Part shown: positions 10,220 to 62,316 of the stretch, one piece after another
Numbering within the stretch: position 1 is the stretch's first letter
Layout: the number at the start of each line of letters is the position of its first letter
Assembly: GCA_000092065.1 (NCBI GenBank)
Contig: CP000584.1
Source: Ostreococcus lucimarinus
Taxonomy: Eukaryota
Strand: one strand, 5' to 3'
Length of the DNA stretch: 64,000 bases
The notes under the pieces: model-generated
What the model saw: the letters and a program-made list of their open reading frames with translations, nothing else
The model's database searches: none
What the model was told of the DNA's origin: nothing
Position numbers and translations under genes: made by a program

Positions 10220-10605
10220 CGCGCGCCCGCGAGTGCGCGTCGCGCGCGAATGAATGGAATGAACGAATGCGCGTCGCGAATGCGCCGAAGTGGTAAGTCC
10301 GTGTGTGAGACTTAGTCTCGAATCGTCGCGCGACCGGTCCGTGTGTGCGACTCGACGCGCGTGAGACGCGCGCGACGGCGGCGGCGCCGGCGTCGAGGCG
10401 CGCGACGACGCGACGCGGTGAACGAGTGTGCGCGCGGCGACGCGCGTTCTGAGAATACATCGTCCGAACTTGATCACGGTAATACGTGCGAGAAGGATCA
10501 CCGAACGTCGAGCGCGACGCGAGCGCATCGCGCGCGCATCGGGGCGCGGGGCGCAGAAGGAGGGATCGACGGCGACGAGAGCGACGCGCGAACGATACGG
10601 CGAGG

Positions 10606-26719: not shown

Positions 26720-28090
26720 TCATCTCTTTTTACCCGCCATCACGAGCGCGGTCGTGGAGATGATGCAAATCGTCGCCAAGACTTTTTGGGCGTCGTCGAC
26801 GAGAGGATCGCCGGCGTGTCTGTTGACGCCGAGCGACTCGCGAACGTTTTCGAGATTCCAGGCGTACAAAAAGTAGCCGAAACACAACAACCACAGGACG
26901 ATTCTGGTCGCCATGGGAATGGAGTCGTCCTCTATTTGCTCCTTGCGCATGCGTTCGGTTTCCTTGGCGATGATTTCGTCGCACGCCTCCTCGAGAGCCT
27001 CGATGCGCGCCATGGTCTCCTCGCCGTTCGGATCGCTCTTCGGGTCCACCTTGTGCACGAGTTCGTTGGCGAAGTGCTTGAAGCCGCTCGCTAACTCGAG
27101 CATGTTGTTGCACTTGAGCATGATGCGCGCGCTCAGGCCTCGGCGAATCTTGACCACGCCCTTGAAGACGTTTTCGTTGCCGTAGCACTCGGCCAACGTC
27201 GCGATGGCCATCACCTGAGGAATGGCGCAGAACCGGAAGATGGAGATCTCCTTGACTCGGCTCATGTACTTTAAGCAATCCAACGAGTGCGACAGGGCGT
27301 TGGTGATCAATTCGTTCATGCACTGCACCGCCTTTTCGCGGTTTTCCTCGTGTTGCAAATCGTCGAGCTCTTCGGCGTACTTGCTCCACACGCTCCTAGG
27401 CCAGAACATTCGCGGCGCGGGAAGCTCCTGAATGTCTTCCAAGTAATCGCGAATGATGTTCGTCTTCTGTAAAAACAATCCCATGGCGTTCGAGAGCTTT
27501 TCCTCGCCCACAAACTCCGCGCTCTCCATCTTCGACACCCCCCACAAGTTGGACAGACCGATGCCGACCAAGCCCGCGACGTAGTGGCAATACTCGTCGA
27601 AATCCGCCATGTCCATCACCTCCTTCTCGATAAACTTCGCCATCCCGTGCCCCATTCGCTTGGTGATGTCCGCGATCACCGTTCGATACTCCTTCTTCAA
27701 TCCCAAGAACACCGACGTCACGCGCGGATAATTCTTCATCAAATCCTTGTAGTGCTTCTCCCCGCAATCCGCGCTATAATTCGCGTCGTAAATGTACTCG
27801 TGAAACGCGAGCAGATCCGGCACCTTCCTCTCGATCGGTATGCTCATGTCGTCCTCCACCGTGTCCAGCGCTCGAAGCACGAGATAAAACACGCACACCG
27901 CGTCTCGCAGCTCCGCGTCCAGCCGCTGAATCACGATCGCGAACGATCTCGACACCTTATTCAGCACGTCGTAGCAGTACGCCAGATCCGGATCCTTCGG
28001 CAATCTCTTCGCCGCGTTCGCCATCATCTTCACCCGCACCAGCGGCGCGACGTCCCCCGGGTGCGACAGCACCGCCCGAAGCGCCCCCAT
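26720..28090 (-). CDS. SQS: Squalene synthase (farnesyl-diphosphate farnesyltransferase)
   Basis: Near-colinear with animal and plant SQS. Matching segments include YCYDVLNKVSRSFAIVIQRL, AVCVFYLVLRALDTVEDDMSI, YCHYVAGLVGIGLS, GLFLQKTNIIRDYLED and AIPQVMAIATLA. There is a C-terminal TM anchor, and the ATG is confirmed (cat at 28088-28090). Confidence 0.9.
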   Translation of the reverse strand: MGALRAVLSHPGDVAPLVRVKMMANAAKRLPKDPDLAYCYDVLNKVSRSFAIVIQRLDAELRDAVCVFYLVLRALDTVEDDMSIPIERKVPDLLAFHEYIYDANYSADCGEKHYKDLMKNYPRVTSVFLGLKKEYRTVIADITKRMGHGMAKFIEKEVMDMADFDEYCHYVAGLVGIGLSNLWGVSKMESAEFVGEEKLSNAMGLFLQKTNIIRDYLEDIQELPAPRMFWPRSVWSKYAEELDDLQHEENREKAVQCMNELITNALSHSLDCLKYMSRVKEISIFRFCAIPQVMAIATLAECYGNENVFKGVVKIRRGLSARIMLKCNNMLELASGFKHFANELVHKVDPKSDPNGEETMARIEALEEACDEIIAKETERMRKEQIEDDSIPMATRIVLWLLCFGYFLYAWNLENVRESLGVNRHAGDPLVDDAQKVLATICIISTTALVMAGKKR

Positions 28091-37245: not shown

Positions 37246-37968
37246 TCAATCCCTCGGGTTCGCCCGCAACGCCTCCCGCAAGACGGCGTCGAATCGATTA
37301 CACCCCGCCGCGCACGCGTCCAACGCGCGCTCCGTCTCGTCCGCGTTCCACCGCCCGAACGTCTCCGTCTTCGCGTACGCCTCCATCGACGACATCTGCG
37401 CTAAAAACACCATCCCATCGCTCGTCTCGATCTCCTCGCGCGTCGGATCGAGCATCATCCTCTCCCCCGCCCGCGCGCACTCGCACGCGCTCACCAAGTC
37501 TCGGCACGCCACCCCCGCGCGCGCCAACGCCGCGGACGCCGCCAGCACGCACGCCACCGCCTCGCCCCCCCGCGCGTCCAGCACCGTCACGCACGCGTCC
37601 ACCTGCGTCTTCGGGAAGCTTTCCGTCAGCACGCTCGCGCTGAGCGCCTCCTTCACCGTCCGCGCCAAGCCGTCGTCCGCCGTCCTCGCGCCGCGTCCTC
37701 GCGCGCGCGCTCGGTTCGCCCCATCCAGCGCCCGCGCGCCCGTCGCGAACGGCGCGCGGTACGCGTCGACGTCCAGCGTCCCTCGATCGACGCCCGCGAG
37801 CTCGGCGCGGCCGCGGCGCGGGCCGTAGACGGCGCACGACGCCTTGGTGTCGCCGAGCTCGACGTACGCGGAACCGGCGGCGGCGGGGACGACGTCGAGG
37901 GCGACGACGAGGGCGCGGCAGTGCGCGTCGGCGCGCGCGTCTTCGCGAGGCGCGAGCGACGAGGGCAT
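37246..37968 (-). CDS. Exosome complex RNase PH-like subunit (Rrp46/Mtr3/Rrp41 class)
   Basis: The ATG is confirmed. The RNase PH fold signature AGSAYVELGDTKASCAVYGPRRG and the length of about 240 aa fit non-catalytic exosome ring subunits. Confidence 0.7.
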   Translation of the reverse strand: MPSSLAPREDARADAHCRALVVALDVVPAAAGSAYVELGDTKASCAVYGPRRGRAELAGVDRGTLDVDAYRAPFATGARALDGANRARARGRGARTADDGLARTVKEALSASVLTESFPKTQVDACVTVLDARGGEAVACVLAASAALARAGVACRDLVSACECARAGERMMLDPTREEIETSDGMVFLAQMSSMEAYAKTETFGRWNADETERALDACAAGCNRFDAVLREALRANPRD

Positions 37969-44525: not shown

Positions 44526-47500
44526 TCAGCCGCGACGCTTGCTCAATCGCCACGCGTTCGGATCGTTGTAGCGATCGTACAGGGGCTCGATTTTCTCGCT
44601 CTTTTTGCGCTTGCTCAGATGGCGAGGGTCGCTGAGCTTGAAAAAGCGCGGAGCGAGCTCGACGAGCCATTTGGGGTCGATGGCGCAGACTTCACGCATG
44701 TACTCCTTGGTCGTGAGCACGAGCTCGTGGTAGATGACCCAGTCGGGCTGACGTTGGAAGAGCGCGCTCGAGGGGTGAATGTACGTCGGAGTCTGCTCGA
44801 CGATGGTTTTGTAACCCTCCTGCGGATCTTTCTTGGCGCCGTGGAAGAAGAAACCCGAGCAGATGGCTTTGCGAACTTTGTTGTAGTTGCGTCCAGCGCT
44901 CGTGGTGCCGAGCTTGTATCGATCCATGATGGTGAGAAGTTGTTTACGGACGTCTTGCGCGCGCTTCATCGAACGCGCCTGTAAAAAGTTCTCGTAACAC
45001 CAAGGTTCGCTGAAACCTTGAGCCTTCCACGCCTCATACACCGACAACAATGTCAAATGGTCGCCTTCGGCTTGGAAAAACTTGTTCTTCTTCGCGTCCG
45101 CCTGCGCTTGCTTTTCCTTCGGGCGGTGGAAGATATTTTGAGCGCTCAGCATGGCGACGATGGTCAAAATTTCCTCAGAACACCCGAGATCAACGCTCGC
45201 GATGAGCATCTTACTCATCGGCGGCTCCAATGGAAACTCTGCCATCTTGCGCCCGAGTCGAGTGAGCAAGCCTTCCTCATCTAACGCGCCTAAATTGTAC
45301 AGTTGCTCCAAAGCCGTGACGAGCGTCGCCGGTGGAGGCGGGTCCATGAAATCAAAATTAATCAAGTCGTTGATCCCCATAGCTTTCATCGTCAGCACCG
45401 TCATGCTCAGGTTCGTCCTTTGAATTTCTGGCACCGATGTCGGGAGCATTTCGTTCTTGAACGCACTTTCCGTGTACAATCTATAACACTTGCCGGGACC
45501 TGTACGACCGGCGCGACCGGCTCGCTGTCGAGCTGAAGCCTGTGAAATCGGAGCCACGATGAGAGAGTCCATGGAAATCTTAGGATTGTACACTTTTTGT
45601 TTTGAAAACCCGGGATCGACGACGTAGAAGATGCCGTCAATAGTGAGCGAGGCTTCGGCAATGTTTGTCGCGATGACGCACTTGCGACTGCCGGGCGGCG
45701 CCGGCTCAAAAATGCGCGTCTGCTGTTCGCTAGGAAGAGCAGAGTACACCGGCAAGACGTGTAACTCTGGAACCGCTGGACCTAATGCGCGCATACGATC
45801 GAATAGAATCTCCGCAGCCGCATCAATCTCTTCTTGACCCGTGAGGAACAGTAAGATGTCGCCCTCGGGCTCTGTGAGGTGGATTTGCATCACCGTGATC
45901 AAAGCGGCATCAAGATAGTCGCTCTCGGGAGCTTTAGTATACAATACTTCGACAGGAAACGTTCGACCAGGAATGGTGAAAATGGGGCAATCGAAAAAGT
46001 ACGTCGAAAACTTTTCGGCGTCCAAAGTAGCTGACGTCACGATGATTTTCAAGTCTTTTCGCTTTGCGCAGCACTTCTTCAGCAATCCGAACAATACGTC
46101 CGTGTGGATCGTTCTTTCGTGTGCCTCATCGAGCATGATGACGCAATACTGCGATAACAAGTCATCCAACAAAGCCTCGCGAAGTAGCATACCATCGGTC
46201 ATGTACTTGATAACTGTGTCCTGTGACGTGCAGTCTTCGAAACGAATCGCGTAACCAACCTCTTCACCGAGTCGACAGCCGTACTCCTCGGCGACACGCT
46301 TGGCTACGGACATTGCGGCCACACGCCTTGGTTGCGTGCATCCTATTCTACCCCGTGACGTATACCCAGCCTCGGCCAAGTATTGGGTCATCTGCGTCGT
46401 TTTCCCCGAACCCGTCTCGCCAATCACCACTAAAATCTGATTTTCATTCACCGCTTGAATCAATTGATCGCGCAGTTTATAAATCGGTAGCGTCTGCCGT
46501 AATTGATGAATGGGCATCGTCTGTGGCTGGCCCATCCTTTGACCTTGGCCCATGGACTTGGCCTTCCAAGCGGGCATATCGCGGCCTCCGCGACTGCCGC
46601 CGTACTGTCGAGCCTCCTCTGTCAACGACGCATCGCCCTGTCTTCTCATCGGATCCTCCCACGGACGCGCCGCTACTTGACCCTCGGCCTCAGTATTTGC
46701 TCGCTGCTGCTGATCGCGAAGCTCGCGTCGCTCTTTCGCCAGCGTGGCTTGCGTCATGGCGGCGCGTTGCATGGAACCATCTGGGTTTTTGACAATTTTA
46801 ATCGGCGAAACGTCACCCGTGCTCGCCGCAGTTTGTCCCTGCAAGAACGGCGCCTCGTCTTCGTTGATCTCGATTTCAACTTCCTCTTCAGCTTCTTCTT
46901 CGTAGGATAGCATGCCGTCGTTTTCCGGATCGAATTGCGGATAGTCTTGCACCTTCAACACCCCGCTCGCGATGAGCTGCCGAGCTTCCCACAGCTCCGG
47001 CGAACTCAGCCTCTTTGCAGGTCGTTTGCGCGAGGCTGTGTTTGCTTCATCCAAAGTGCTGGCATCGATGCCAGAAAGGCCTTTAAGTGACGCCATTCCC
47101 CCTGCTGCTGACGGCCCGGGTGGCGGTAAATTCCTCGGCGCTGGATTACTTCTGTTACCGCCAAACGTGGCGCGCGCAGTCTCCTTCCCCGAGATTTGGT
47201 CCACATCCTTCATCGACAGCGATATCTTGTTTCCGTTACGATTCAAAACTTTGACAAACACGCTCTCACCTCGCCTCGCGCCGTCCTTTGCGCTTTTCAG
47301 GTGTCGATCGGTAATGGCGCTCACGTGCACCAAGCCCTCCGCCTTGCGCTTGAACTCCACCAACTCCACAAAGGCTCCGAAATCCATCACATTTGTCACC
47401 CTTCCGCGGTACACCCCACCCACACTTGGCTCACCATCTCGCGTCTTCTCATCGCTCTTCGTCTGCGCGCTCGCAAGCGAGTGCGAAACCTCCCTCTCGT

Positions 47501-47933
47501 TCGCCCGTTCGCTCTTGCTCGGGTCGTCCGCCGCGTTTGCGAGCGCGTCCCGGTCCCCGTATAATTCCCTCGTCAACGCCTTCGCGTGCGAATCATCGTC
47601 CCGCACCGCAAGTCCAGGAAAGTTTGCGTCGCCGCTCGACCTTCCAGACGTCCCCGCGCTTCCCGCAGTCGCCGCATTTGTCCCGCGCGCCGTCCCGCTC
47701 GGCTTCTTCCGCATCCGCTGAATCAGCCCAAGCAAAGATTCCGCGAACGCATCGTCCACTTCTGCGCCGACCGCGCCAAGCGCCTTCCGAAACGTCACCG
47801 GAGTGTCGTTTTCGTCCGTGAGCGCGATGACGAACTCGCTCAGCGTCTTATCGGCGATCCCGAGGTGATTTTCGAGCTCCTTCGTGACTTTGTTCACGAG
47901 CGAGAGCTGCGCGAGTTTGGCGAGCGCCGCCAT
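44526..47933 (-). CDS. DHX8: Pre-mRNA-splicing factor ATP-dependent RNA helicase DHX8/Prp22 (DEAH-box)
   Basis: The start was placed at the internal ATG (cat at 47931-47933) giving [16 protein letters not shown]. The listed ORF begins at a TTG. The S1 domain is [25 protein letters not shown] helicase motifs are present ([27 protein letters not shown]), plus the HA2 and OB C-terminus. Confidence 0.9.
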
Positions 47934-52878: not shown

Positions 52879-53073
52879 CGCCGACGTCGCGCGACCGCGC
52901 GCGCGCGCGTGCCGTCGCGTTCGTATGGCGCGCAGTGAGAAACGGTTTTTCGACACCCGGGATGCCGCAGACGCGCGCGCGCTGGGTCGACGACGACGAC
53001 GATGACGACGCGAACGGAACGTCGCCGACGTGGATTCGATGATTCGGTCGAACGTTCGGCGCGCGCGCGCGCG

Positions 53074-56000
53074 ATGTGGACGCGCGCGAGCGCCGCCGGC
53101 GCGATGGTTTCGCTCGCGATGGCGAGCGGGACGGCCGTCGCGTACACGGCGGGGACGGCGTGTTACCCCGAAGCGGCGTGCGAGTCGGGCGGAAGCAACA
53201 CGTTCGATAAATACCAGCGAAGAGTGTGTCAAATGCTCGCGGACACGAGCAAGTATTGCATCATCCCGAGCGAACCGACGGACGAATTGAGTGGGTGTTC
53301 GCGCGAGCTGCTGTATCACGGTTGGTGCGACGCGAACAAGTACGTCTTTGAATCGGGATGTTTGGCCAAACATCCGACGACGGATTCTTCGGCGTGCTCG
53401 AATTGCAATTTCGATTCGTATCCGACAGCGTATTGGAGCGTGGGGGCGCCATATCCTCTACACCCTGGAATGGTTAATCACGCTTTCCGAGAGTGCGTGG
53501 TCGATTACGTCAAGGCGAAGATCGAAGAAGGTTTTGCCGCTGAAGGTATGACCGCGGATGCGACATCGCTTCAGCAGCTCGCAGAGCAAGAATTTCCGGT
53601 GGAACAAATGGTGGACGTTGACGATTACAAAGAGCAGTATTCAAGTTATTACTTAGATGATGGAGACTTCGACGAGTTGGACGAAGAGATGACCGATGAA
53701 CACCTCGACGACGTCTCCGGATCCGTTGACGAAAGCGTCATGACGAAGACAGTAACGGCTTCGTGCTCTTCGCCCTCAGACGACAAAATCTGCTACAAAA
53801 TGTGCGCTGGTGACCTCGGTCTTAATCTCGAGTATAAGATCAAGGTGCCGAAAGTCTGCGCTAAAATCAAAATTCTCGGGAAGAAGTTTAAGAAATGCAT
53901 CAGAGTCCCGACGACGAAGTTTAAAATTCCAAACAAGTGCACGAACTTGTGCGTCAATATTCCAGGTTACTGCGAGATGCAAGAAGCGGCGAGTGCGATT
54001 ACACAGATAAAGAACATCAGATCACTCGGTGATTTGGCATTACCCTGCAAAACACTGGGTGGGCCGGGCGATGTCTGTAATCTGCTCGAAGAAGCCGACG
54101 ACGCGTTTAGAGCGATGGAGTCGATGGCGAAAATAGCCACGACGTCAACGGTCGACGCCTTTCTCGATCTGCGAGTGTTACCGTCGATATTGCAAAACGT
54201 CCTCGACGAAGCTACGGACGCTTTGGAGGACATCGCCAACGGCCTCGAAAATAAACTCCGCAACTTGGTGGAACATGTCTGGGGTACGGTTGCGAGCTCG
54301 TCGTCCGAAGTCGTATCGTTCATCGAAAATAACGTCAAGGGTTCAATATGCGCATCGTCGAGTTCCACGGCATCGCTCGGAGCCGCGCGCGAAGAGCGAC
54401 GACTCGCCCTCGTAAATGACATTCATCGCGGCGTGCGCGCTGCGTTCCGGGGCGACTCGACTCCGACGCACTCAGCGCGTCCAATCGTTCCTAATCTAGG
54501 CGCTGGGCAGTGTTGCTATCACATCCCGTTCGCGTGTAGCAGCGAGGTGGATTTCCCAATGCCTTGGCCGAAGGCCTTGGAGAATATATCGGACTCACCG
54601 GGTGCCGTCGTTGTGAACATGCCGGGCCTGGAATTCAACATCTGTGGCGAGATCACGCAGTTTAAGGTGGACGAGAAAGTTGCGACGAAACTGGTGAATG
54701 CTTTTGGTGATATGTTCGAAGCGCTCTTTGCAGCACTTTACGAAGAGAGCGGACTGAAAAAAGTCGTGGATGACGTGAAAGATCTGACAAAGGACATGTT
54801 TGGGTCGTCGGCGGCGCTCGGATCGTATGATCGACCGTCTTTCTCCACCGACGACCGCAAACATCTGTTGAGGAAATACGTCGAAGTCAAAAACCGGATG
54901 GCAGAGACGGAGACAATCGTTCTGGAGGAACTTTTGAAAATATCTGACACCATTCATTCGCCCGAATACTTGACGCATACAACACGGACGCCGTCGCGCG
55001 ATGACGTGCCGTCTCTGGGCGGCGAGAACTTGTTCGAAAAGGTCCTGAATGATTTCGCCGACGATTTGCAGACGGCTCTTAAATCTATGGCAGACACGAC
55101 AGTCGTGAAGGCGGATATGTCAATCAACGTGAAAGGAGACACGTCCATCAATGCGAAGGCGAGCGTCTACAAGATCGGCGACATCATCGACAAGCTCGAT
55201 ATTCCAAATAGCTTTGCGGGCGTCCACGTCGCCCCTCTGTTTCCCGGTTTAACCGCGGCGCTTCAATACGACGTGTTGCTTTCGATGCCATATTACGTCA
55301 ACATCGACATGGAGGCATCTTTTGCCTTGGGTCTCGATATCGATATCCCGATATCTCTCGAACTTTCGAATACACCAAACTTCGCCATGGGCTCGCCCGC
55401 CGTGAACTTGGTTCCGACGTACACCGCAGCCGGTAAGTCGAGCGCGCAGGTAGGCGCGAGTGTTGAGATAAAGAAAGGCTGGATAGCGCTGTGCGCGGGG
55501 ACTCACTGCGTCGGCCCATGGATCAAAGCGCGCCAAGACGTCTACGTCGGGGTCGACACCTGGGCTTTCGCCAACTGCGACTCGGGATATGGCGAGCTCG
55601 TGCCAAAATGGACCGACGGATTCTCTTATTCGAGCAAAAATCAAGCAGCATGCGCAGGTTCACTCGCAGGCGCTGGTGGCTACGCGCAAGTGCCGAAGAC
55701 GGGCAATATTCTCGCTCAGGTACTGTTCGCCCCCATGCCGATCATGCCCTCGGGCGCGAGCGCCGCCTCGCAATCCGCGGCGCGTCTCGGCGACGACGAC
55801 GACGAGTGCGAGGCTCAGCCAATGGGTATGATACTGGCCGATTACACCAACACCGTGCATAACGCCGTCATGGCGGGCGGCGATAACTGGTACACGACGG
55901 ATTTGTTTGCCGAGTGCCCGTCCGCGGGCAAGTGCCCCGCGCCGTCACCGCCGCAACCGTACACGCCAACGGCGAACACAAAGCTTGCCAAGTACAACGC

Positions 56001-56394
56001 CCGGTGCTGCGGCAACTCCGGCGATTCGCGCTGCGCCGCAGCGATCGAAGGTACGTACGAAACGCTCTGCGCCCAGCTCTGCGACGCCTGCGCGGGTTGT
56101 GTCGCCTTCGACTACCAAGCCAGCAAGAACAAATGCGGCTTCAGCAAAAGCGATAGCACGGAGGACCGGGTGGGATTCACGCACTTCGGTCACGGCGCGA
56201 CGCCCGCGTCCAAATCTTCCCTCGGCTCTCGCATGCGTTTCAGCGCGCGCGCGTCGTCGCCAACGTCACCATCCGCGCTCACCGCCGTCTTCGTCGTCGC
56301 CTTCGCCGCCGCCTTCGCCTCGGCCGCGTTTCGCCGCCGCCGCCTCGACGACGCTCGCCGCGCGCGCGTCGACGATTACGGCGCGTTCGACTGA
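53074..56394 (+). CDS. Large hypothetical Cys-rich secreted protein with a C-terminal membrane anchor; codon-usage outlier
   Basis: The ATG at 53074 gives the signal peptide [23 protein letters not shown]. There are over 60 Cys in clusters. A PAN/apple-like Cys pattern occurs near the C-terminus ([37 protein letters not shown]...C). The final hydrophobic stretch [18 protein letters not shown] is followed by RRRR. The region is visibly more AT-rich at third codon positions than its neighbours. Confidence 0.6.
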
Positions 56395-56735: not shown

Positions 56736-56826
56736 ATGAAGCTCGTGCGGTTTTTGCAGAAACTCTCCAACGAAAGCGTGACGATAGAGCTCAAGAACGG
56801 CACCACGGCGCACGGGACGATCATGG
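56736..56826 (+). CDS. SMD1: Small nuclear ribonucleoprotein SmD1, exon 1
   Basis: The sequence [31 protein letters not shown] matches SmD1 ([31 protein letters not shown]). The reading frame collapses right after this point unless it is spliced. Confidence 0.85.
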
Positions 56827-57045
56827 GTGCGTGCACGATGACGACGACGGCGCGCGACGCGCGAGGACGACGCGCGAGGACGAACGAGAGAAGCGCGAAT
56901 GCGAAACGCGGGAAACGCGGCGACGATCGGGACGCGGCGAGAAGACTCGACGGGAGACGAGACGCGAGAGGGACGAGACGCAGGGCGAGCGACGCGAGCG
57001 AAGACTGACGAGCGCGAAAATCACGGCGTCGCGCGCGATCGACAG
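56827..57045 (+). other. SMD1: Spliceosomal intron of SmD1 (219 nt, phase 1, GTGCGTG...GACAG)
   Basis: Joining 56826 to 57046 restores the exact SmD1 sequence ...HGTIMG|[18 protein letters not shown]... with GT/AG boundaries. Confidence 0.8.
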
Positions 57046-57299
57046 GCGTGGACGTGAGCATGAACACGCACCTGAAGCAGGTGAAGCTCACGCTCAAGGG
57101 TAAAAACCCGACGGCGGTCGAACACCTGAGCGTTCGAGGGAACACGATTCGGTATTACATCCTTCCGGACTCTTTGAATCTGGACACTTTGTTAGTAGAC
57201 GACACGCCCAAGCAAGGGAAACCGCGCGCGAAGGCGGCGGCGAGCGCCGGTCGAGGGCGCGGTCGCGGTCGAGGGCGCGGGCGCGCGCGGCCGACGTAG
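57046..57299 (+). CDS. SMD1: SmD1 exon 2, the Sm fold remainder plus a C-terminal (RG)n tail
   Basis: The sequence [54 protein letters not shown]...[16 protein letters not shown] is the Sm2 motif and the RG-repeat tail typical of SmD1. Confidence 0.85.
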
Positions 57300-57512
57300 T
57301 CGGTCCGCCGTCGGCGTCCGAGCGCGTAGTCGCCGCGTCGCGCGCGATTCGACGTCGAGCGCGCCGTCGCGCCGCAGTTGTTTGTTTTATACGATATCCA
57401 GCGATTAGATAGATCTCCGTCGCCGCGTCGACCTCGTCGCGTCCGTCGTCGCCGCGTCGACTTTCAATTTCAAACCGACCGAACCGACAGGTGGCGCCAT
57501 TCCGCGACGCCC

Positions 57513-58289
57513 ATGCCCGCGTCCGCGCGCGCGCTCGAGCGCGCGCGCGCGGCCGTCGAACTCGACGTCGCGCGAGACTTCCCCGCCGCCGCGCGCGCGT
57601 ACAGAGACGCCGCGGCGGCGCTCGACGCCGACGCCGACGCCGACGCCGACGGCGCCGATGGATTGCGACGGAAAGCGCGCGAATACCGCGCGCGCGCGGA
57701 CGAATTAGAGGCGACGACGCGCGAGACGACGGTTGATTACACCTCGCTCGTCGGCGTCGCGAGCGGGGCGGCGCGCGCGAAGACGACGATGGAGACGAAG
57801 ACGCGCGACGCCGGCGGCGCGCGCGTCGTCGGCGGCGCCGCCGCGGTCGGCGCGTGCGCGGGATTCGCGTTGCTCGGACCGGTGAGCGCCGTCGTCGGCG
57901 CGGGGGCGATGGCATACGGCACGACGCGGCGCGACGGCGTCGGGAGCGCGTGCTCGGGGGCGGGAAAGATGGCGGCGAACGCGTACTCGAGCGTGAAGAG
58001 ATGGAATCGCGAGCACGCCGTCACGACGAAAGCCGCCGCCGCGTGCGCGACGGGCGCCAAGGCGGTGAAAAAGCTGGACGACGAGTATAAGATACGCGAG
58101 AAGACGGCCAAGGCGGTGACCGGCACCGCGAGGGCGGCGAGCGAATTTAACGAAAAGCACGGCGTGACGAAGAAAATCGGCGAGGGCGTCTCCGTCGGTC
58201 TCGACGTCGTGACGAAGAAGCTCGGCGGCGTCGACGCGCGCGACGAGGCGTCGAGCGAGGGCGCGCGTTTGCCATCCGCGCCGCGTTGA
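57513..58289 (+). CDS. Hypothetical MIT-domain-like protein with a Gly/Ala-rich C-terminal half
   Basis: The ATG is at 57513. An N-terminal three-helix MIT-like region (ARALERARAAVELDVARDFPAAARAYRDAAAAL...RRKAREYRARADEL) is followed by low-complexity and hydrophobic sequence. Homology assignment is weak. Confidence 0.4.
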   Translation: MPASARALERARAAVELDVARDFPAAARAYRDAAAALDADADADADGADGLRRKAREYRARADELEATTRETTVDYTSLVGVASGAARAKTTMETKTRDAGGARVVGGAAAVGACAGFALLGPVSAVVGAGAMAYGTTRRDGVGSACSGAGKMAANAYSSVKRWNREHAVTTKAAAACATGAKAVKKLDDEYKIREKTAKAVTGTARAASEFNEKHGVTKKIGEGVSVGLDVVTKKLGGVDARDEASSEGARLPSAPR

Positions 58290-58438
58290 TCGCGCCTAGC
58301 GTCCTTGTACATTTACATCACACCGCACGACTCGCAGTCGCCTCGGCGTCGACAGTCTGACGGGACAGTTACGACGGTTACTCCGCACAGTCGCGCGCTC
58401 GCGCCGCGCGCGACGCGCGAGCGCGAGCGCGACGAGCG

Positions 58439-58483
<45 letters not shown>

Positions 58484-58680
58484 GCGCGCGCGACGCGACG
58501 ACGATGCGTTCGCGCGCGGAGAGGACGGCGCGGCGGTCGAGACGACGCGAGACGACGAGACGACGCGCGGCGGCGGCGTGGCCGGACGACGCGCGCGCGA
58601 AGACGCTGTTCACGGCGCGGGGCTCGCGCGAAAAACCGACGCGGTACGATTATCGGAGTCGAGTGCGAGGCGTGGTGGGG

Positions 58681-61503
58681 ATGGAAAAGTTTAGCGACGA
58701 CGAGTTGGACTCGGCGAGCGAATCGGAGGAAGAGTGGCTCGTCGACGAGGACGACGACGAGGCGAGCGGAGGCGACGATGAAAGGCGGAGCGGAAGCGAC
58801 GACGAAGATGGTGAGGAGGATGACGACGACGGTGTTCGTGCGGTCCGTCGACGAAGGCGGATGAAAGCTTCGAATCCATTCGAATCGGACGACGACGACG
58901 ACGGTGTTCGTGCGGTCCGTCGACGAAGGCGGATGAAAGCTTCGAATCCATTCGAATCGGACGACGACGACGACGACGACGACGACGATTTCAAGCCGAT
59001 TCGTAAACGTAGAAGAGTGTCGACGAAGAGACAAAAGGACGAAGAAAAAACCGTGAGAGTCGAGACGCCGCGACGCGCGAGCACACGAGTGGGCGCGAGG
59101 GCGAAACGAAAAGCGGCCGACGCGGCGAGACACGTCTCTTCATTGTTGCGTCCAACGATGGATGTGGACGACGAATCAATCGTCGAGGACGACGCGTCGT
59201 CTTCGGATTCTTCCGAATTGGATTTTGTCGTCGACGACGACGAGGACGAGACTGCGACTGAAGTTGACTTCACGCCTCGAAGAACCCGGCTGAGTCTGGG
59301 ATCGAGCGTTGACGAGGCTCTGAGCATCGACGACGTCGCAGCGTTGAAACGCGCTCTCTCACGTCTAGAGGAGACACCTCGACCGGGTCGCGTGCTCATC
59401 TCCGCGGCCGCGCACAACGCCATAAACGTAGCGAGCGAGTTCTTGGCGAATGGTATTCGAGTAAATGGTCAGTTGAACGAGAGGGGATCCAAGAAACCGC
59501 ACATCACGGACATCGCCGACGCGCTTCACATCGCGTGCGAACGAGGCAACGTGGATTTCGTTCACGCCGTGAGGGACCAAATCGGATTGGCGCAGTTCTG
59601 TCGAGGTGGTGACACCGGCGGTTGGCCGACCTCAGCGACGGGCGGCACACTCGTCCATTCGGCGGCGGATAACGAAAAAGCGAGCGCGGAGTGCGTTGCA
59701 GCGGCGATTATGGCGGAGTCACCACCGAAAGGGCGCGTCATGCCCGTGGCTGCGGTGTTCGACGAAGACGCTCGCGGCGCACGCACGCCGTTGATGATCG
59801 CTGCGGGTGCAGGTCCCGAGTGGGGGTCTTGCGTTGAAGCGCTCTTGAGGGATGCCAGAACATACGGCCAACGCGCAGTGCGAATCGCGATACGATGTCA
59901 AGAGCCACAAGAAGGATGTTCTGCGGTGCACATCGCCGCCGTCGCCGGAAATGTGGTTTGTTTGGAGAAATTTCTAAAGGAAGATCCATCGTGCTTAAAG
60001 GTGAAAGACTACAACGATTCGACGCCATTGCATTGGGCATCTATGGAAGGACGGCACGAGACGATCCGAGTGTTGCTCGAGAAGGGCGCCAACAGACTAG
60101 CGATTGACAAAATGGGTTGGATTCCGTTGCTCTACGCCAATTTTCACGAAAAGAGTGAGGCAGTTTTATACTTGCTCGAGAAACAAGTCTCGGAGCAATT
60201 GCAGACCATGTTCACTGCGGTGGCATCGGAGGACGATGGGAAGTCCAAGTTGCAGGTACAAAAGGTTTTGAATTTGCTCGCAGCCAAACCAGCGTACTAC
60301 GATGCGATAAACAACTGCATCAGGAGAGACATGTCGCTCTTGGGCCCTGTCATGAACATGCTGCGCGAATGTGGAGCGATTACTATTATCAATTTGGCCA
60401 ACCGCGTGTCGTTCTTGCGCAATACGTGGCTCAATGAATATGGATTGCAAAATTTAGCTCTCTCGAAAAGTTTCACCTTGTCTGCGCAAGACGCTTGGCA
60501 CGACTTTTTCGTAAATGTCTGGTCCGTCTCGCCAAAGATTTTGAAGATTCGACATCTCAGTTGGGGCTTGCGGCAGCCATCGGGGGATGTTTCAGTAGGT
60601 CCGGGACCAACGCGTGAAGCGTTCAGCTTGATGGCGAACGAGTTGTGCGATGGAAACAGAGCCGACCGCCAGCTATTTACACAGGATGACGCGCGCACGT
60701 ACAAACGTAAGGAAGGTATCGACCGCCCGAGCGTGCTGAAAGAGCTCCAGTGTTTCGGCGAACTTCTGGCGCACGTGGTGCTCTTCGGCAGCGCCGTTTT
60801 ACCGATTCCGTTCTCCAAAGTCTTCCTGAGGCGCGTCATCGCCAACGAAAAATGTGACGCGTTCACTCTAGACGATCTCGCCGACGTTGAGCCCGCAGTG
60901 GTGAAGTCGATCAAGGTTGTGCTTGAAACCGACGACGTCGAATCGCTCTGTCTCACGTTTATCGATCCGACGACGAACGAAGAGACAGACGTCACGAAGG
61001 CAAACTTGCAAGCATTCAAGCGACAAAAAATTCGCGAAATGGTGTCGAGCATCGTAGACGACGCATCCGTGCACGCGATCCGCACAGGTTTGCTCCAAAT
61101 CATGCGAAAATCACAGATCGAGGTGCTGGCGCCCGAAGAGTTTGGCCTCGTCGCCGCCGGCTCGCAATCGATCGACCCCAAGGAATGGCGCCGACACGCC
61201 TCCTTCTCACCAAGTCCAGAGATGGAATGGTTTTGGGACGTGGTCGAACGCATGAACAACGACGACAAATCTCGTCTCCTCCAATTCTCCACCGGGAGTA
61301 GTTTACTTCCGGTCGGTTCTTTCGCCGCGCTGTGTCCTCCGTGGAGCATCGAAGTCGGTCTTCACCGCGACGCCAGTAAGCTCCCCACCGCCTGGACGTG
61401 CTTCAACACGCTTCAAATGCCGCGCTACCCATCGAAAGAATTGCTCGAAGAGCGCTTGTTTTGCGCGCTGCGCCACGGAAGCGCTGGATTCGCCTTTGCG
61501 TGA
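58681..61503 (+). CDS. HECT-type E3 ubiquitin ligase with ankyrin repeats and an acidic repeat-containing N-terminus
   Basis: The ATG at 58681 gives MEKFSDDELD. There are ankyrin repeats (TPLMIAAGAG..., SAVHIAAVAGNVVCLEKFL, TPLHWASMEGRHETIRVLLEKGAN). The C-terminal HECT domain ends LPTAWTCFNTLQMPRYPSKELLEERLFCALRHGSAGFAFA, which contains the catalytic Cys. A TGTAA lies 36 nt after the stop. Confidence 0.85.
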   Translation: MEKFSDDELDSASESEEEWLVDEDDDEASGGDDERRSGSDDEDGEEDDDDGVRAVRRRRRMKASNPFESDDDDDGVRAVRRRRRMKASNPFESDDDDDDDDDDFKPIRKRRRVSTKRQKDEEKTVRVETPRRASTRVGARAKRKAADAARHVSSLLRPTMDVDDESIVEDDASSSDSSELDFVVDDDEDETATEVDFTPRRTRLSLGSSVDEALSIDDVAALKRALSRLEETPRPGRVLISAAAHNAINVASEFLANGIRVNGQLNERGSKKPHITDIADALHIACERGNVDFVHAVRDQIGLAQFCRGGDTGGWPTSATGGTLVHSAADNEKASAECVAAAIMAESPPKGRVMPVAAVFDEDARGARTPLMIAAGAGPEWGSCVEALLRDARTYGQRAVRIAIRCQEPQEGCSAVHIAAVAGNVVCLEKFLKEDPSCLKVKDYNDSTPLHWASMEGRHETIRVLLEKGANRLAIDKMGWIPLLYANFHEKSEAVLYLLEKQVSEQLQTMFTAVASEDDGKSKLQVQKVLNLLAAKPAYYDAINNCIRRDMSLLGPVMNMLRECGAITIINLANRVSFLRNTWLNEYGLQNLALSKSFTLSAQDAWHDFFVNVWSVSPKILKIRHLSWGLRQPSGDVSVGPGPTREAFSLMANELCDGNRADRQLFTQDDARTYKRKEGIDRPSVLKELQCFGELLAHVVLFGSAVLPIPFSKVFLRRVIANEKCDAFTLDDLADVEPAVVKSIKVVLETDDVESLCLTFIDPTTNEETDVTKANLQAFKRQKIREMVSSIVDDASVHAIRTGLLQIMRKSQIEVLAPEEFGLVAAGSQSIDPKEWRRHASFSPSPEMEWFWDVVERMNNDDKSRLLQFSTGSSLLPVGSFAALCPPWSIEVGLHRDASKLPTAWTCFNTLQMPRYPSKELLEERLFCALRHGSAGFAFA
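58832..58975. repeat. Perfect 72-bp tandem duplication (2 copies) inside the HECT ligase N-terminal coding region, preceded by a (GACGACGGC)n 9-mer run (12-nt period) at 58440-58480
   Basis: ggtgttcgtgcggtccgtcgacgaaggcggatgaaagcttcgaatccattcgaatcggacgacgacgacgac is repeated exactly. It encodes GVRAVRRRRRMKASNPFESDDDDD twice. Confidence 0.85.
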
Positions 61504-61593
61504 CGTTCGCCGAACGCGCCTCGCCTCGTAAACGCGCGTGTAACACGCTTTGATTCGCCTCGCGTCTCGTCACACACCGCCGTCATCGCGACG

Positions 61594-62316
61594 ATGCGCC
61601 CGTACGACGCCGACGCCGACGCCTGGGATGACACCGCGCTCGTCCGCGCGTACGACGACGCGATCGCGAGGCACGGCGCGCCGTCGAACGCGCCGACGGC
61701 GCGACGACGAGGCTCGAACGAGGACGAGCGCGCGAACGACGCGCCGACGCGCTCGGGCGACGCGCGGCGCGAGGCGACGCCGCGGTCGAGCGAACACACG
61801 CGCGCGCGGGCGTCGCCGGTGCCGCATTACTACGCCGAGACGTCGTACGGGGACGAGTACGAGTACGAGTACGGCCGTCGCGCGCCGCCGCCGCCGCCGC
61901 CGCCGAGACGAGGCCACGACCCGTACGACGCGTACGGTGGGTACTACGCCGCGCGAGATGAAGACTATGGGTACTTTGAGGATGAGTTTGCGGCGTTCTC
62001 GCCGTTTAGACGCGGAAGAGGACCGCCGCGAGGACCGCCGCGAGGACCGCCGCGAGGACCGCCGCCGTCGCCCGGCGAATACGGTGGGTATCCTCATCGC
62101 GCGCCGCCGATGACGCCGCGAGGGATTCGCGCGACGCCACCGCGCGCGCCTCCGGATATGACGGAGTCCGCGCTCGAGACGGCGCGGTCGTACGAAGACG
62201 ACGGGTACGACCCGGACGAGCTCGCGAATTTACTCTTGAGTTGGTACTACGCGGGGTACTACACGGGAAGTTTTTCCCGACAGCCCCCGCCGCAGCCGTC
62301 GTCGTATCCGGGATGA
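61594..62316 (+). CDS. SMN: SMN (survival motor neuron)-like protein, Tudor-less, with an N-terminal Gemin2-binding motif and a C-terminal YG box
   Basis: WDDTALVRAYDDAIARH compares with human SMN WDDTALIKAYDKAVASF. At the C-terminus, ELANLLLSWYYAGYYTGSF compares with the SMN YG box MLISWYMSGYHTGYY. In between there are Pro-rich tracts (PPPPPPP, GPPRGPPRGPPRGPP). It starts only 90 bp after the HECT gene stop. Confidence 0.65.
   Translation: MRPYDADADAWDDTALVRAYDDAIARHGAPSNAPTARRRGSNEDERANDAPTRSGDARREATPRSSEHTRARASPVPHYYAETSYGDEYEYEYGRRAPPPPPPPRRGHDPYDAYGGYYAARDEDYGYFEDEFAAFSPFRRGRGPPRGPPRGPPRGPPPSPGEYGGYPHRAPPMTPRGIRATPPRAPPDMTESALETARSYEDDGYDPDELANLLLSWYYAGYYTGSFSRQPPPQPSSYPG

Follow-up and report, generated by a model that had tools for sequence, protein, structure and literature searches.

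The window, the whole stretch of 64,000 nucleotides of nuclear DNA from the green alga Ostreococcus lucimarinus that was analysed, carries on its plus strand a SmD1 gene (56736-57299) and a SMN-like gene (61594-62316), with 4.3 kb between the stop codon of the former (57299) and the start of the latter (61594). The first-pass annotation had reported the shared strand and this spacing, both of which hold, and had placed the SMN-like gene two genes downstream of SmD1; the strand is right, but the SMN-like gene is the third gene downstream, as two other genes intervene. The first of these (57513..58289, +) encodes 258 amino acids from its first ATG and matches the Pfam MIT domain with an E-value of 2e-6 and a score of 28.2 bits, slightly below the cutoff of 30; a gene of 258 aa with a weak MIT match lies at the same position in the related loci L009-L011. 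The second (58504..61503, +) encodes an ankyrin-repeat HECT E3 ubiquitin ligase (Pfam HECT 1e-50, Ank_2 3e-20), whose start codon is uncertain, the relatives being called at 913-923 aa.

The SmD1 gene has two exons and one intron, and its spliced product of 114 aa starts at the ATG at 56736. Exon 1 (56736..56826, +), read directly from the sequence, comprises 30 codons plus one nucleotide. It is followed by a GT..AG intron of 219 nt (56827..57045, +), with the donor GTGCGT at 56827 and a CAG acceptor ending at 57045, and by exon 2 with the stop codon (57046..57299, +), which is supported by Pfam LSM and PDB matches. Splicing the intron out gives the frame ...IMGVDVSMN..., identical residue for residue to human SmD1. 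Exon 1 was also found by tblastn in the related loci L005-L008, and a GTGCG donor follows it in all relatives. The spliced product matches Pfam LSM (E 4.2e-17), and the best matches of a PDB search, about ten in number, were all SmD1 (5e-49 to 3e-34), with the paralogues scoring far lower (SmD3 4.5e-11, LSm2 about 1e-7); by Pfam and PDB together, the LSM fold is nearest to SmD1 and not to other Sm/LSm paralogues. The short C-terminal RG tail described earlier is indeed there: six GR dipeptides are coded by 57249-57284 (+), or five if the same register is read as RG, followed by ARPT, and the tail is the same in L005, L006 and L008. In animals, the GR-repeat tail of SmD1 is a substrate of PRMT5. 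Judged by its sequence, this is an ordinary SmD1 gene.

Motifs of the SMN-like protein

The SMN-like gene is a single intronless ORF of 240 aa (61594-62316, +), with 90 bp to the stop codon of the HECT gene on one side and 91 bp to the next gene, on the minus strand, on the other. Its exact 240-aa product is on record from three metagenome contigs only. The orthologues (n=17) measure 232-336 aa, and the 16 that are reliably translated have a common architecture; identity among them ranges from 42 to 97%, the motif residues being invariant and the remainder divergent. The nearest relatives are about 97% identical in DNA, with differences that are mostly repeat indels, and the distant relatives are saturated.

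The N-terminus holds a Gemin2-binding helix (aa 5-27, DADADAWDDTALVRAYDDAIARH; 61606..61674, +), as had been proposed for this ORF. The Pfam model SMN_G2-BD (PF20636) matches residues 5-27 (33.1 bits, the cutoff being 22.2; E 3.8e-8) and is found in 16 of the 17 orthologues. Both phmmer and hhalign agree with it: the former aligns the N-terminus with residues 26-51 of human SMN (5xjl_M, 2leh_B), where 5xjl and 2leh show this peptide crystallised together with Gemin2, and the latter, run with the alignment of the orthologues against a fungal SMN alignment, gave a probability of 97% and reported the N-terminal match alone. The AF2 model has a helix at aa 13-27, and W11, D13, Y20 and I24 are invariant among the orthologues.

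The C-terminal module (62152..62277, +), comprising a pre-helix of aa 187-200 and the YG box of aa 205-228, YDPDELANLLLSWYYAGYYTGSFS, was defined by phmmer, HMM and AF2. In the phmmer search its match was S. pombe Smn1, at the YG box (7bb3, E 6e-4; also 4rg5). As hhalign had reported nothing beyond the N-terminus, the YG box was assayed separately with an in-house fungal YG HMM, which scored 32.8 bits on the SMN-like ORF (E 1.4e-9), the sole match among the 846 six-frame ORFs of the window. AF2 predicts helices at 190-199 and 207-224 with pLDDT above 90. The core SWYYAGYYTG is present, and in a set of 22 SMNs that spans green algae, fungi, ciliates and one stramenopile, W217, Y218, A220, G221 and Y222 do not vary. 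The Pfam YG-box model (PF20635) finds no match in the protein itself and matches 2 of the 17 orthologues weakly (E 0.016). An interdigitated YxxxYxxxY and GxxxGxxxG zipper, the YG box is present in every SMN orthologue known so far (PMC8287954). Two of its three Y-G pairs (Y218/G221 and Y222/G225) are kept here and the third zipper glycine is replaced by R229, so that oligomerisation of the protein may be weaker or different. The feature would thus be present in substance, as a shortened zipper. The first-pass annotation called the YG box clear, a word that suits the matches to Smn1 and the fungal HMM but not the miss by Pfam or the absent third glycine.

The middle of the protein is disordered in the AF2 model (pLDDT <50). 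It includes a perfect tandem repeat of four 12-bp units (62018..62065, +; TRF, 100% matches) that codes for (RGPP)4, whose copy number varies in frame between closely related environmental sequences. It also includes conserved, lineage-specific aromatic/acidic motifs at aa 108-138, DPYDAYGGYYA...YFEDEFAAFSPF (61915..62007, +), in which none of the 17 sequences departs from Y111, D112, Y114, E129, F132, F135 and F138. AF2 places just a short low-confidence helix at 125-133 in this region, Pfam matched no known domain to it, and the motifs do not occur in the fungal/protist SMNs of the comparison alignment.

Tudor domain and family membership

A central Tudor domain belongs to the canonical metazoan architecture of SMN and is not universal in the family. 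The statement that the SMN-like protein lacks one is borne out at each level searched. A profile search of 61594-62316 matched SMN_G2-BD and no Tudor HMM, and neither PF06003 nor any other Tudor model was found by Pfam in any of the 17 orthologues at E<=10. AF2 predicts no beta strands, no hidden Tudor was found in overlapping or antisense ORFs or in the flanks, and the short intergenic gaps (90 and 91 bp) leave no room for a missing Tudor exon. Likewise, no gene for Gemin2 (SIP1) or for a Tudor/SPF30 protein was found by Pfam in the window, where the search covered the gene ORFs and 32 further ORFs (27 large and 5 overlapping or flanking). Without a Tudor domain by Pfam and AF2, the protein does not belong to SPF30/SMNDC1. 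Since the SMNs of fungi and trypanosomes also lack the Tudor domain (PMC8287954), its absence is compatible with SMN membership.

For family retrieval, the orthologues and short fungal/protist SMNs were combined into a joint profile, in which the short sequences outnumber the long ones and the low-complexity middle therefore drops out. At E<=0.001 it retrieved 1796 representative proteins, among which the listed top matches are mostly 110-236 aa long; among the matches are a spider SMN that has a Tudor domain and entries annotated as 'SMN family protein Smn1'. Nineteen of the listed top matches were identified by source name or Pfam scan, and all of these are fungal and Tudor-less save the one spider SMN. 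No named plant or other green-algal match from outside the Ostreococcus group occurs among the listed top 120, and the 25 matches richest in Ala, Gly, Pro and Arg among the listed top 150 representatives also look fungal.

As R, A, S, P or G make up 57% of its residues, the ORF could be read as a low-complexity protein, and not an SMN orthologue, that has matched two short motifs of about 20 residues each by chance, a reading that the failure of the Pfam YG-box model would also favour. However, chance would have had to put two independent SMN motifs at the right termini and in the right order, to carry the Gemin2-binding match past a curated cutoff, and to confine the YG match to a single ORF when all 846 share the same composition. 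It would further have to account for orthologues in which the invariant residues are those of the motifs while the rest diverges, and for a joint profile that retrieves annotated SMN proteins by the hundred over its whole length, which makes such a coincidence barely credible. The SMN-like ORF is, as far as profiles and models can tell, a genuine SMN-family protein of a minimal, Tudor-less type. Its membership is based on the two motifs in correct order, the lack of a Tudor domain and the conservation across relatives.

Gene order around SmD1 and SMN

Three other lineages (L005, L006/L007 and L008) share the order SmD1-MIT-HECT-SMN, and the collinear neighbourhood also keeps genes for an OCRL-like phosphatase, a V-SNARE, DAGK, DnaJ and a kinase. 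In every related locus, O. tauri included, SMN is directly preceded by the HECT gene, and in O. tauri a small minus-strand gene also follows SMN as it does in O. lucimarinus. O. tauri has retained SMN and has no SmD1 within 10 kb, a gene for a 4177-aa EF-hand protein lying upstream in place of SmD1 and MIT. The order itself is judged, from this comparison of loci, to be ancestral in the Ostreococcus group.

The first-pass annotation took the proximity of the two genes as a possible sign of co-regulation. In its stronger form, this would make SmD1 and SMN a functional neighbourhood selected for a shared step of snRNP assembly, and there are observations in its favour: the common strand and the 4.3 kb, the retention of the order in three other lineages, one of them with a HECT protein 35% identical, a further splicing gene (Prp22/DHX8) 9 kb upstream of SmD1, and a chance of well under 1%, by a rough estimate of our own, that a specific pair lies so close in a genome of about 13 Mb. 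This pair, though, was chosen post hoc from about 35 genes of the window. Two unrelated genes, MIT and HECT, stand between its members, each with intergenic regions of its own, and the MIT gene has no part in snRNP assembly. The collinearity runs from the OCRL-like phosphatase and V-SNARE to DAGK, DnaJ and the kinase and does not single out SmD1 and SMN, whose linkage does not exceed background synteny, being kept within the larger block and lost in O. tauri. A search for a shared upstream motif of the two genes returned only CpG-rich k-mers of background type, none of them common to all lineages, and their apparent excess is not meaningful as the control sequences were shuffled without regard to dinucleotides. 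Co-regulation is thus not borne out by proximity, and a neighbourhood selected for snRNP assembly is highly unlikely. The nearness of SmD1 and SMN would be best described as gene order inherited with the rest of a larger collinear block, a functional reason for it being unsupported. As the order persists even in the most divergent relative found (L006), some selective retention is, in the strict sense, thinkable.

Sm recognition, known systems and the green lineage

In the established model, the SmD1/D2/F/E/G proteins are held by Gemin2 and not by the Tudor domain of SMN, and a Tudor-less SMN with Gemin2-mediated Sm binding is textbook for fission yeast. The S. pombe SMN, with 152 aa, is Tudor-less, ICln with SMN/Gemin2/Gemin6-8 suffices to assemble the Sm core in vitro, and it is Gemin2 that accepts the five Sm proteins (PMC10470402). 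By analogy, the N-terminal helix of the O. lucimarinus protein would bind Gemin2, the YG-box helix at its C-terminus would self-associate, and the long disordered Pro/Arg/Tyr-rich linker would join the two. The protein most likely serves a small SMN complex as its oligomeric scaffold, like fission-yeast Smn1, and in this complex Gemin2, and not SMN, would grip the SmD1/D2/F/E/G pentamer and load it onto snRNA; a contact between a Tudor domain and dimethylarginines of the (GR)6 tail of SmD1 would then be unneeded. Gemin2 binding, oligomerisation and a role in the Sm core are all carried over by analogy, and the Gemin2 partner, which has no gene in the window, is assumed. Quite probably, the locus holds a minimal Tudor-less SMN that would scaffold Gemin2, with an ordinary SmD1 gene nearby through inherited order. 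Tudor-independent recognition of SmD1, which had been put forward as an implication of this locus, is overstated and not new, since in the established model Gemin2 holds the pentamer and S. pombe provides the precedent (PMC10470402).

The reading of the Sm RG tail might instead have moved, either to the aromatic/acidic motifs of aa 108-138 or to a separate SPF30-like Tudor protein acting in trans. The residues invariant between Y111 and F138 stand within a fast-evolving disordered linker, in motifs absent from the minimal SMNs of fungi and protists, and the strict conservation of the SmD1 (GR)6 tail in the same lineages suggests that something reads it. However, the region has no domain match and low AF2 confidence, GR tails have purposes unrelated to SMN too, and Arabidopsis SmD1b with its tail arginines changed to lysines still complements the mutant (PMC13596061), so that such a move is unlikely. 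It is quite unlikely as well that Mamiellophyceae keep an ancestral green SMN in which the linker of aa 108-138 replaces the Tudor domain as the (GR)6 contact; if this were true, Ostreococcus would be tractable for the question of how plants came to manage without SMN.

A near counterpart of the protein is S. pombe Smn1 (Yab8; 7bb3, 4rg5), which also has an N-terminal Gemin2-binding helix and a C-terminal YG box with the WYYAGYYTG core, likewise lacks a Tudor domain and has a disordered linker; S. pombe also has a GR-tailed SmD1 (3jb9_F, among the SmD1 matches). The O. lucimarinus protein differs in its length (240 aa against 152), in a linker with polyproline, (RGPP)4 and aromatic/acidic motifs not seen in fungi, in the extra conserved helix of aa 187-200 ahead of the YG box, and in the missing third zipper glycine (S. 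pombe ...TGLAEG). The function of Smn1 has been tested, whereas that of O. lucimarinus SMN is a prediction. Human SMN has almost the same Gemin2-binding helix along DxWDDTALxxAYDxA, and metazoan SMNs including the human one share with O. lucimarinus a proline-rich tract ahead of the YG box and interdigitated Y/G residues, the zipper being shorter in O. lucimarinus. Unlike human SMN, the algal protein has no Tudor domain and hence no aromatic-cage reader of symmetric dimethylarginine, and the tail of its SmD1 client counts six GR repeats where human SmD1 has nine, the present alignment covering a part of the human tail. The O. tauri orthologue (CAID01000004.2, 410767-411516) is 56% identical with the same architecture, and PF20636 has already been assigned to this 'unnamed product' in public precomputed annotation.

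Much of this is already known, including Tudor-less SMN in fungi and trypanosomes, Gemin2-mediated Sm binding and the O. tauri domain annotation. What gives the O. lucimarinus SMN a modest interest is the apparent lack in Arabidopsis of SMN, the presence of which in the green lineage at all is an unsettled question. Arabidopsis has GEMIN2 and no convincing SMN; AtSPF30 (At2g02570; SPF30/SMNDC1), like the algal protein a proposed SMN-related snRNP/spliceosome factor in the green lineage, showed no yeast two-hybrid interaction with Arabidopsis GEMIN2 (PMC13596061). What links SPF30 to SMN is the Tudor domain alone, whereas O. lucimarinus SMN is the reverse, with the Gemin2 helix and YG box and no Tudor domain. 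A SMN with both of these motifs in Ostreococcus and its relatives places the gene in early green algae, which suggests that on the line leading to Arabidopsis SMN either disappeared or changed too much to be recognised. Being small and intronless, the gene is also handy for cross-species tests of Gemin2 binding.

A Tudor-less member of the SMN family

The SMN-like gene (61594-62316, + strand) is a single unbroken ORF of 240 codons. The Pfam Gemin2-binding domain of SMN (PF20636) matches residues 5-27 with 33.1 bits, above the curated cutoff of 22.2. In phmmer searches of the PDB, DADAWDDTALVRAYDDAIAR aligned with the human SMN peptide of 5xjl and 2leh, which was solved in complex with Gemin2, and LLLSWYYAGYYTGS aligned with the YG box of S. 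pombe Smn1 in 7bb3 (E 6e-4) and 4rg5. The Pfam YG-box model found no match in the protein and weak matches in just 2 of 17 orthologues; hence, a custom HMM of 32 positions was derived from 12 fungal SMNs whose YG boxes do match the Pfam model, and it was run, filters off, on the 846 ORFs of the window in six frames. Its sole match was the SMN-like ORF (32.8 bits, E 1.4e-9). The protein has the pairs Y218/G221 and Y222/G225, and the alignment ends ahead of the third zipper glycine, with an Arg at position 229. The first-pass annotation had called both motifs clear, which stands for the Gemin2-binding domain, while the YG box, missed by the Pfam model, appears genuine yet shortened. By homology, the protein would bind Gemin2, oligomerise and act in snRNP assembly.

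The same annotation had described the protein as lacking a Tudor domain, which was confirmed. Tudor models of Pfam gave no match at E<=10 in the protein or in any of 16 orthologues. AlphaFold2, run on the alignment of orthologues, modelled helices at residues 13-27, 125-133, 190-199 and 207-224, with pLDDT <50 across residues 31-96 and zero beta strands; a Tudor barrel is built from strands. Other-frame ORFs overlapping the gene and the flanks had no Pfam matches. The gaps to the upstream HECT gene (90 bp) and to the next gene on the opposite strand (91 bp) leave no space for a missing exon. Neither a Gemin2 nor a Tudor gene was found within the 64-kb window.

Relatives and novelty

A homologue search returned 18 close relatives of 193-336 aa, which carry PF20636 at most and a Tudor domain in no case (0/18); the sole named one is an O. 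tauri 'unnamed product' (56% identical). The orthologue alignment has invariant residues in the N-terminal helix and a long conserved block at the C-terminus (PPDMTESA.ETARSY.DDGYDPDELANLLLAWYYAGYYTGSFS). The otherwise variable middle holds lineage-specific aromatic/acidic motifs (YYYAE.SYG, YDPYDAYGGYYA and FE.EFA.FSPF), and these invariant linker motifs might be the only place for something new, for example a direct contact with GR tails. A profile of both termini matched many short fungal proteins (80-140 aa) with both motifs, some of them named 'SMN family protein Smn1', as well as a stramenopile and ciliates. A mixed alignment, searched exhaustively with HMMER, yielded 1796 cluster representatives at E<=0.001, of which 509 reach E<=1e-10; the best 150 are mostly 110-236 aa. 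For ten of the longer representatives a Pfam scan was run, and for eight of these also a look-up by name. Nine combine the Gemin2-binding domain and YG box with no Tudor domain, the named ones all being fungal; the remaining one, a spider SMN, does carry a Tudor domain. The ORF is hence a member of the SMN family, and a Tudor-less architecture is common.

The S. pombe SMN has 152 aa and no Tudor domain, ICln with SMN/Gemin2/Gemin6-8 is enough for Sm-core assembly in vitro, and the acceptor of SmD1/D2/F/E/G is Gemin2 (PMC10470402). Hence, 'Tudor-independent recognition of SmD1' is the behaviour already expected of a minimal SMN complex rather than a new inference; the observation was confirmed and its interpretation partly supported. 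The mildly interesting aspect is the lineage. According to recent literature, Arabidopsis has no obvious SMN orthologue, its SPF30 showed no yeast two-hybrid interaction with GEMIN2, and GEMIN2 may be the sole conserved component (PMC13596061; preprint 10.1101/2023.09.06.556483). No description of a green-algal SMN was found in the literature searched, nor any named plant or other green-algal protein among the SMN profile matches listed.

The exact 240-aa product is recorded only from three ENA metagenome contigs (2-5 kb), and no NCBI or UniProt record was found. Neighbouring window proteins, by contrast, match O. lucimarinus RefSeq entries exactly, and the gene may be absent from the reference annotation or modelled differently there. 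One homologue from a Logan assembly (P0003) resembles the same protein altered by systematic A>V, P>L/S, R>C/W and T>M substitutions, the pattern that C-to-T conversion of the DNA would give; it was probably assembled from bisulfite-treated reads rather than being a genuine variant. In the related locus L008 a 1-bp deletion near 10290 (column 297 of the alignment) breaks the SMN ORF into 193 + 52 aa. The contig is otherwise 97% identical, and since several further genes on it are fragmented too, the breaks probably stem from errors in assembly, not from pseudogenes. Within the SMN gene, a perfect 12-bp x4 repeat (62018-62065) encodes (RGPP)4 and a GACGCC repeat (61603-61623) encodes DADADA near the N-terminus; both show in-frame copy-number variation between near-identical environmental sequences (L008 and L009).

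SmD1 and the gene order

The SmD1 gene (+ strand) has exon 1 from the ATG at 56736 to 56826 (30 codons), a GT..AG intron (56827-57045), and exon 2, which opens at 57046 and closes with the TAG at 57297-57299. The spliced product of 114 aa matches Pfam LSM (4e-17), and its best PDB matches are SmD1 chains only (5e-49 to about 1e-35), with SmD3 and LSm proteins of solved structure at about 1e-10 or worse. The C-terminus carries six GR dipeptides, and the orthologous genes at three related loci have this same tail. The human SmD1 tail is longer (nine GR), and the tail here is close to that of the top PDB match, 8xi2 chain c. The earlier description of an SmD1 with a short RG tail is correct.

The proximity of SmD1 and SMN had been ascribed to possible co-regulation, which gained no support. 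Between them lie the genes of a MIT-domain protein (57513-58289, +) and an ankyrin-HECT ubiquitin ligase (58504-61503, +), and the order SmD1-MIT-HECT-SMN recurs in the SMN loci of relatives, L008 (HECT 92% identical), L005 (44%) and L006/L007 (35%). In O. tauri (HECT 48% identical), tblastn found no SmD1 within 10 kb. There, the place directly upstream of HECT, held by SmD1 and MIT in the other lineages, is taken by a gene of 4177 aa whose only matches are faint ones to EF-hands (CAID01000004.2, 1-6724); it marks the synteny break. The arrangement is therefore ancestral in the compared loci and was broken once, with SMN retained. Collinearity in L005-L008 extends to an OCRL-like phosphatase and a V-SNARE on one side, and to a small minus-strand gene, DAGK, DnaJ and cNMP-kinase on the other; the pair is kept no better than its neighbours. 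The k-mers shared by the SmD1 and SMN upstream regions are CpG-rich only, and none is common to all lineages.

The window is compact eukaryotic DNA with 61% G+C. A second spliceosome gene, the DHX8/Prp22 helicase (DEAH-box, S1 domain; 44526-47933, -), lies about 9 kb upstream of SmD1 and is identical to XP_001417493.1 of O. lucimarinus CCE9901. Similarly, squalene synthase (26720-28090, -) is identical to XP_001417488.1 of that strain. These two identities mark the window as nuclear DNA of O. lucimarinus or of a nearly identical strain. An exosome-type RNase PH gene is found at 37246-37968 (-). Between the V-SNARE neighbourhood and SmD1 lies a cysteine-rich ORF of 1130 aa (53002-56394, +) with no significant Pfam match. 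The matching interval in L005 and L006/L007 has no gene call of comparable size, and the ORF may thus have been inserted in the O. lucimarinus lineage alone. The HECT gene contains a 72-bp tandem repeat (58782-58975; 2.7 copies, 85% matches) in its acidic N-terminal region, with the duplicated peptide DDDDGVRAVRRRRRMKASNPFESDDDDD.
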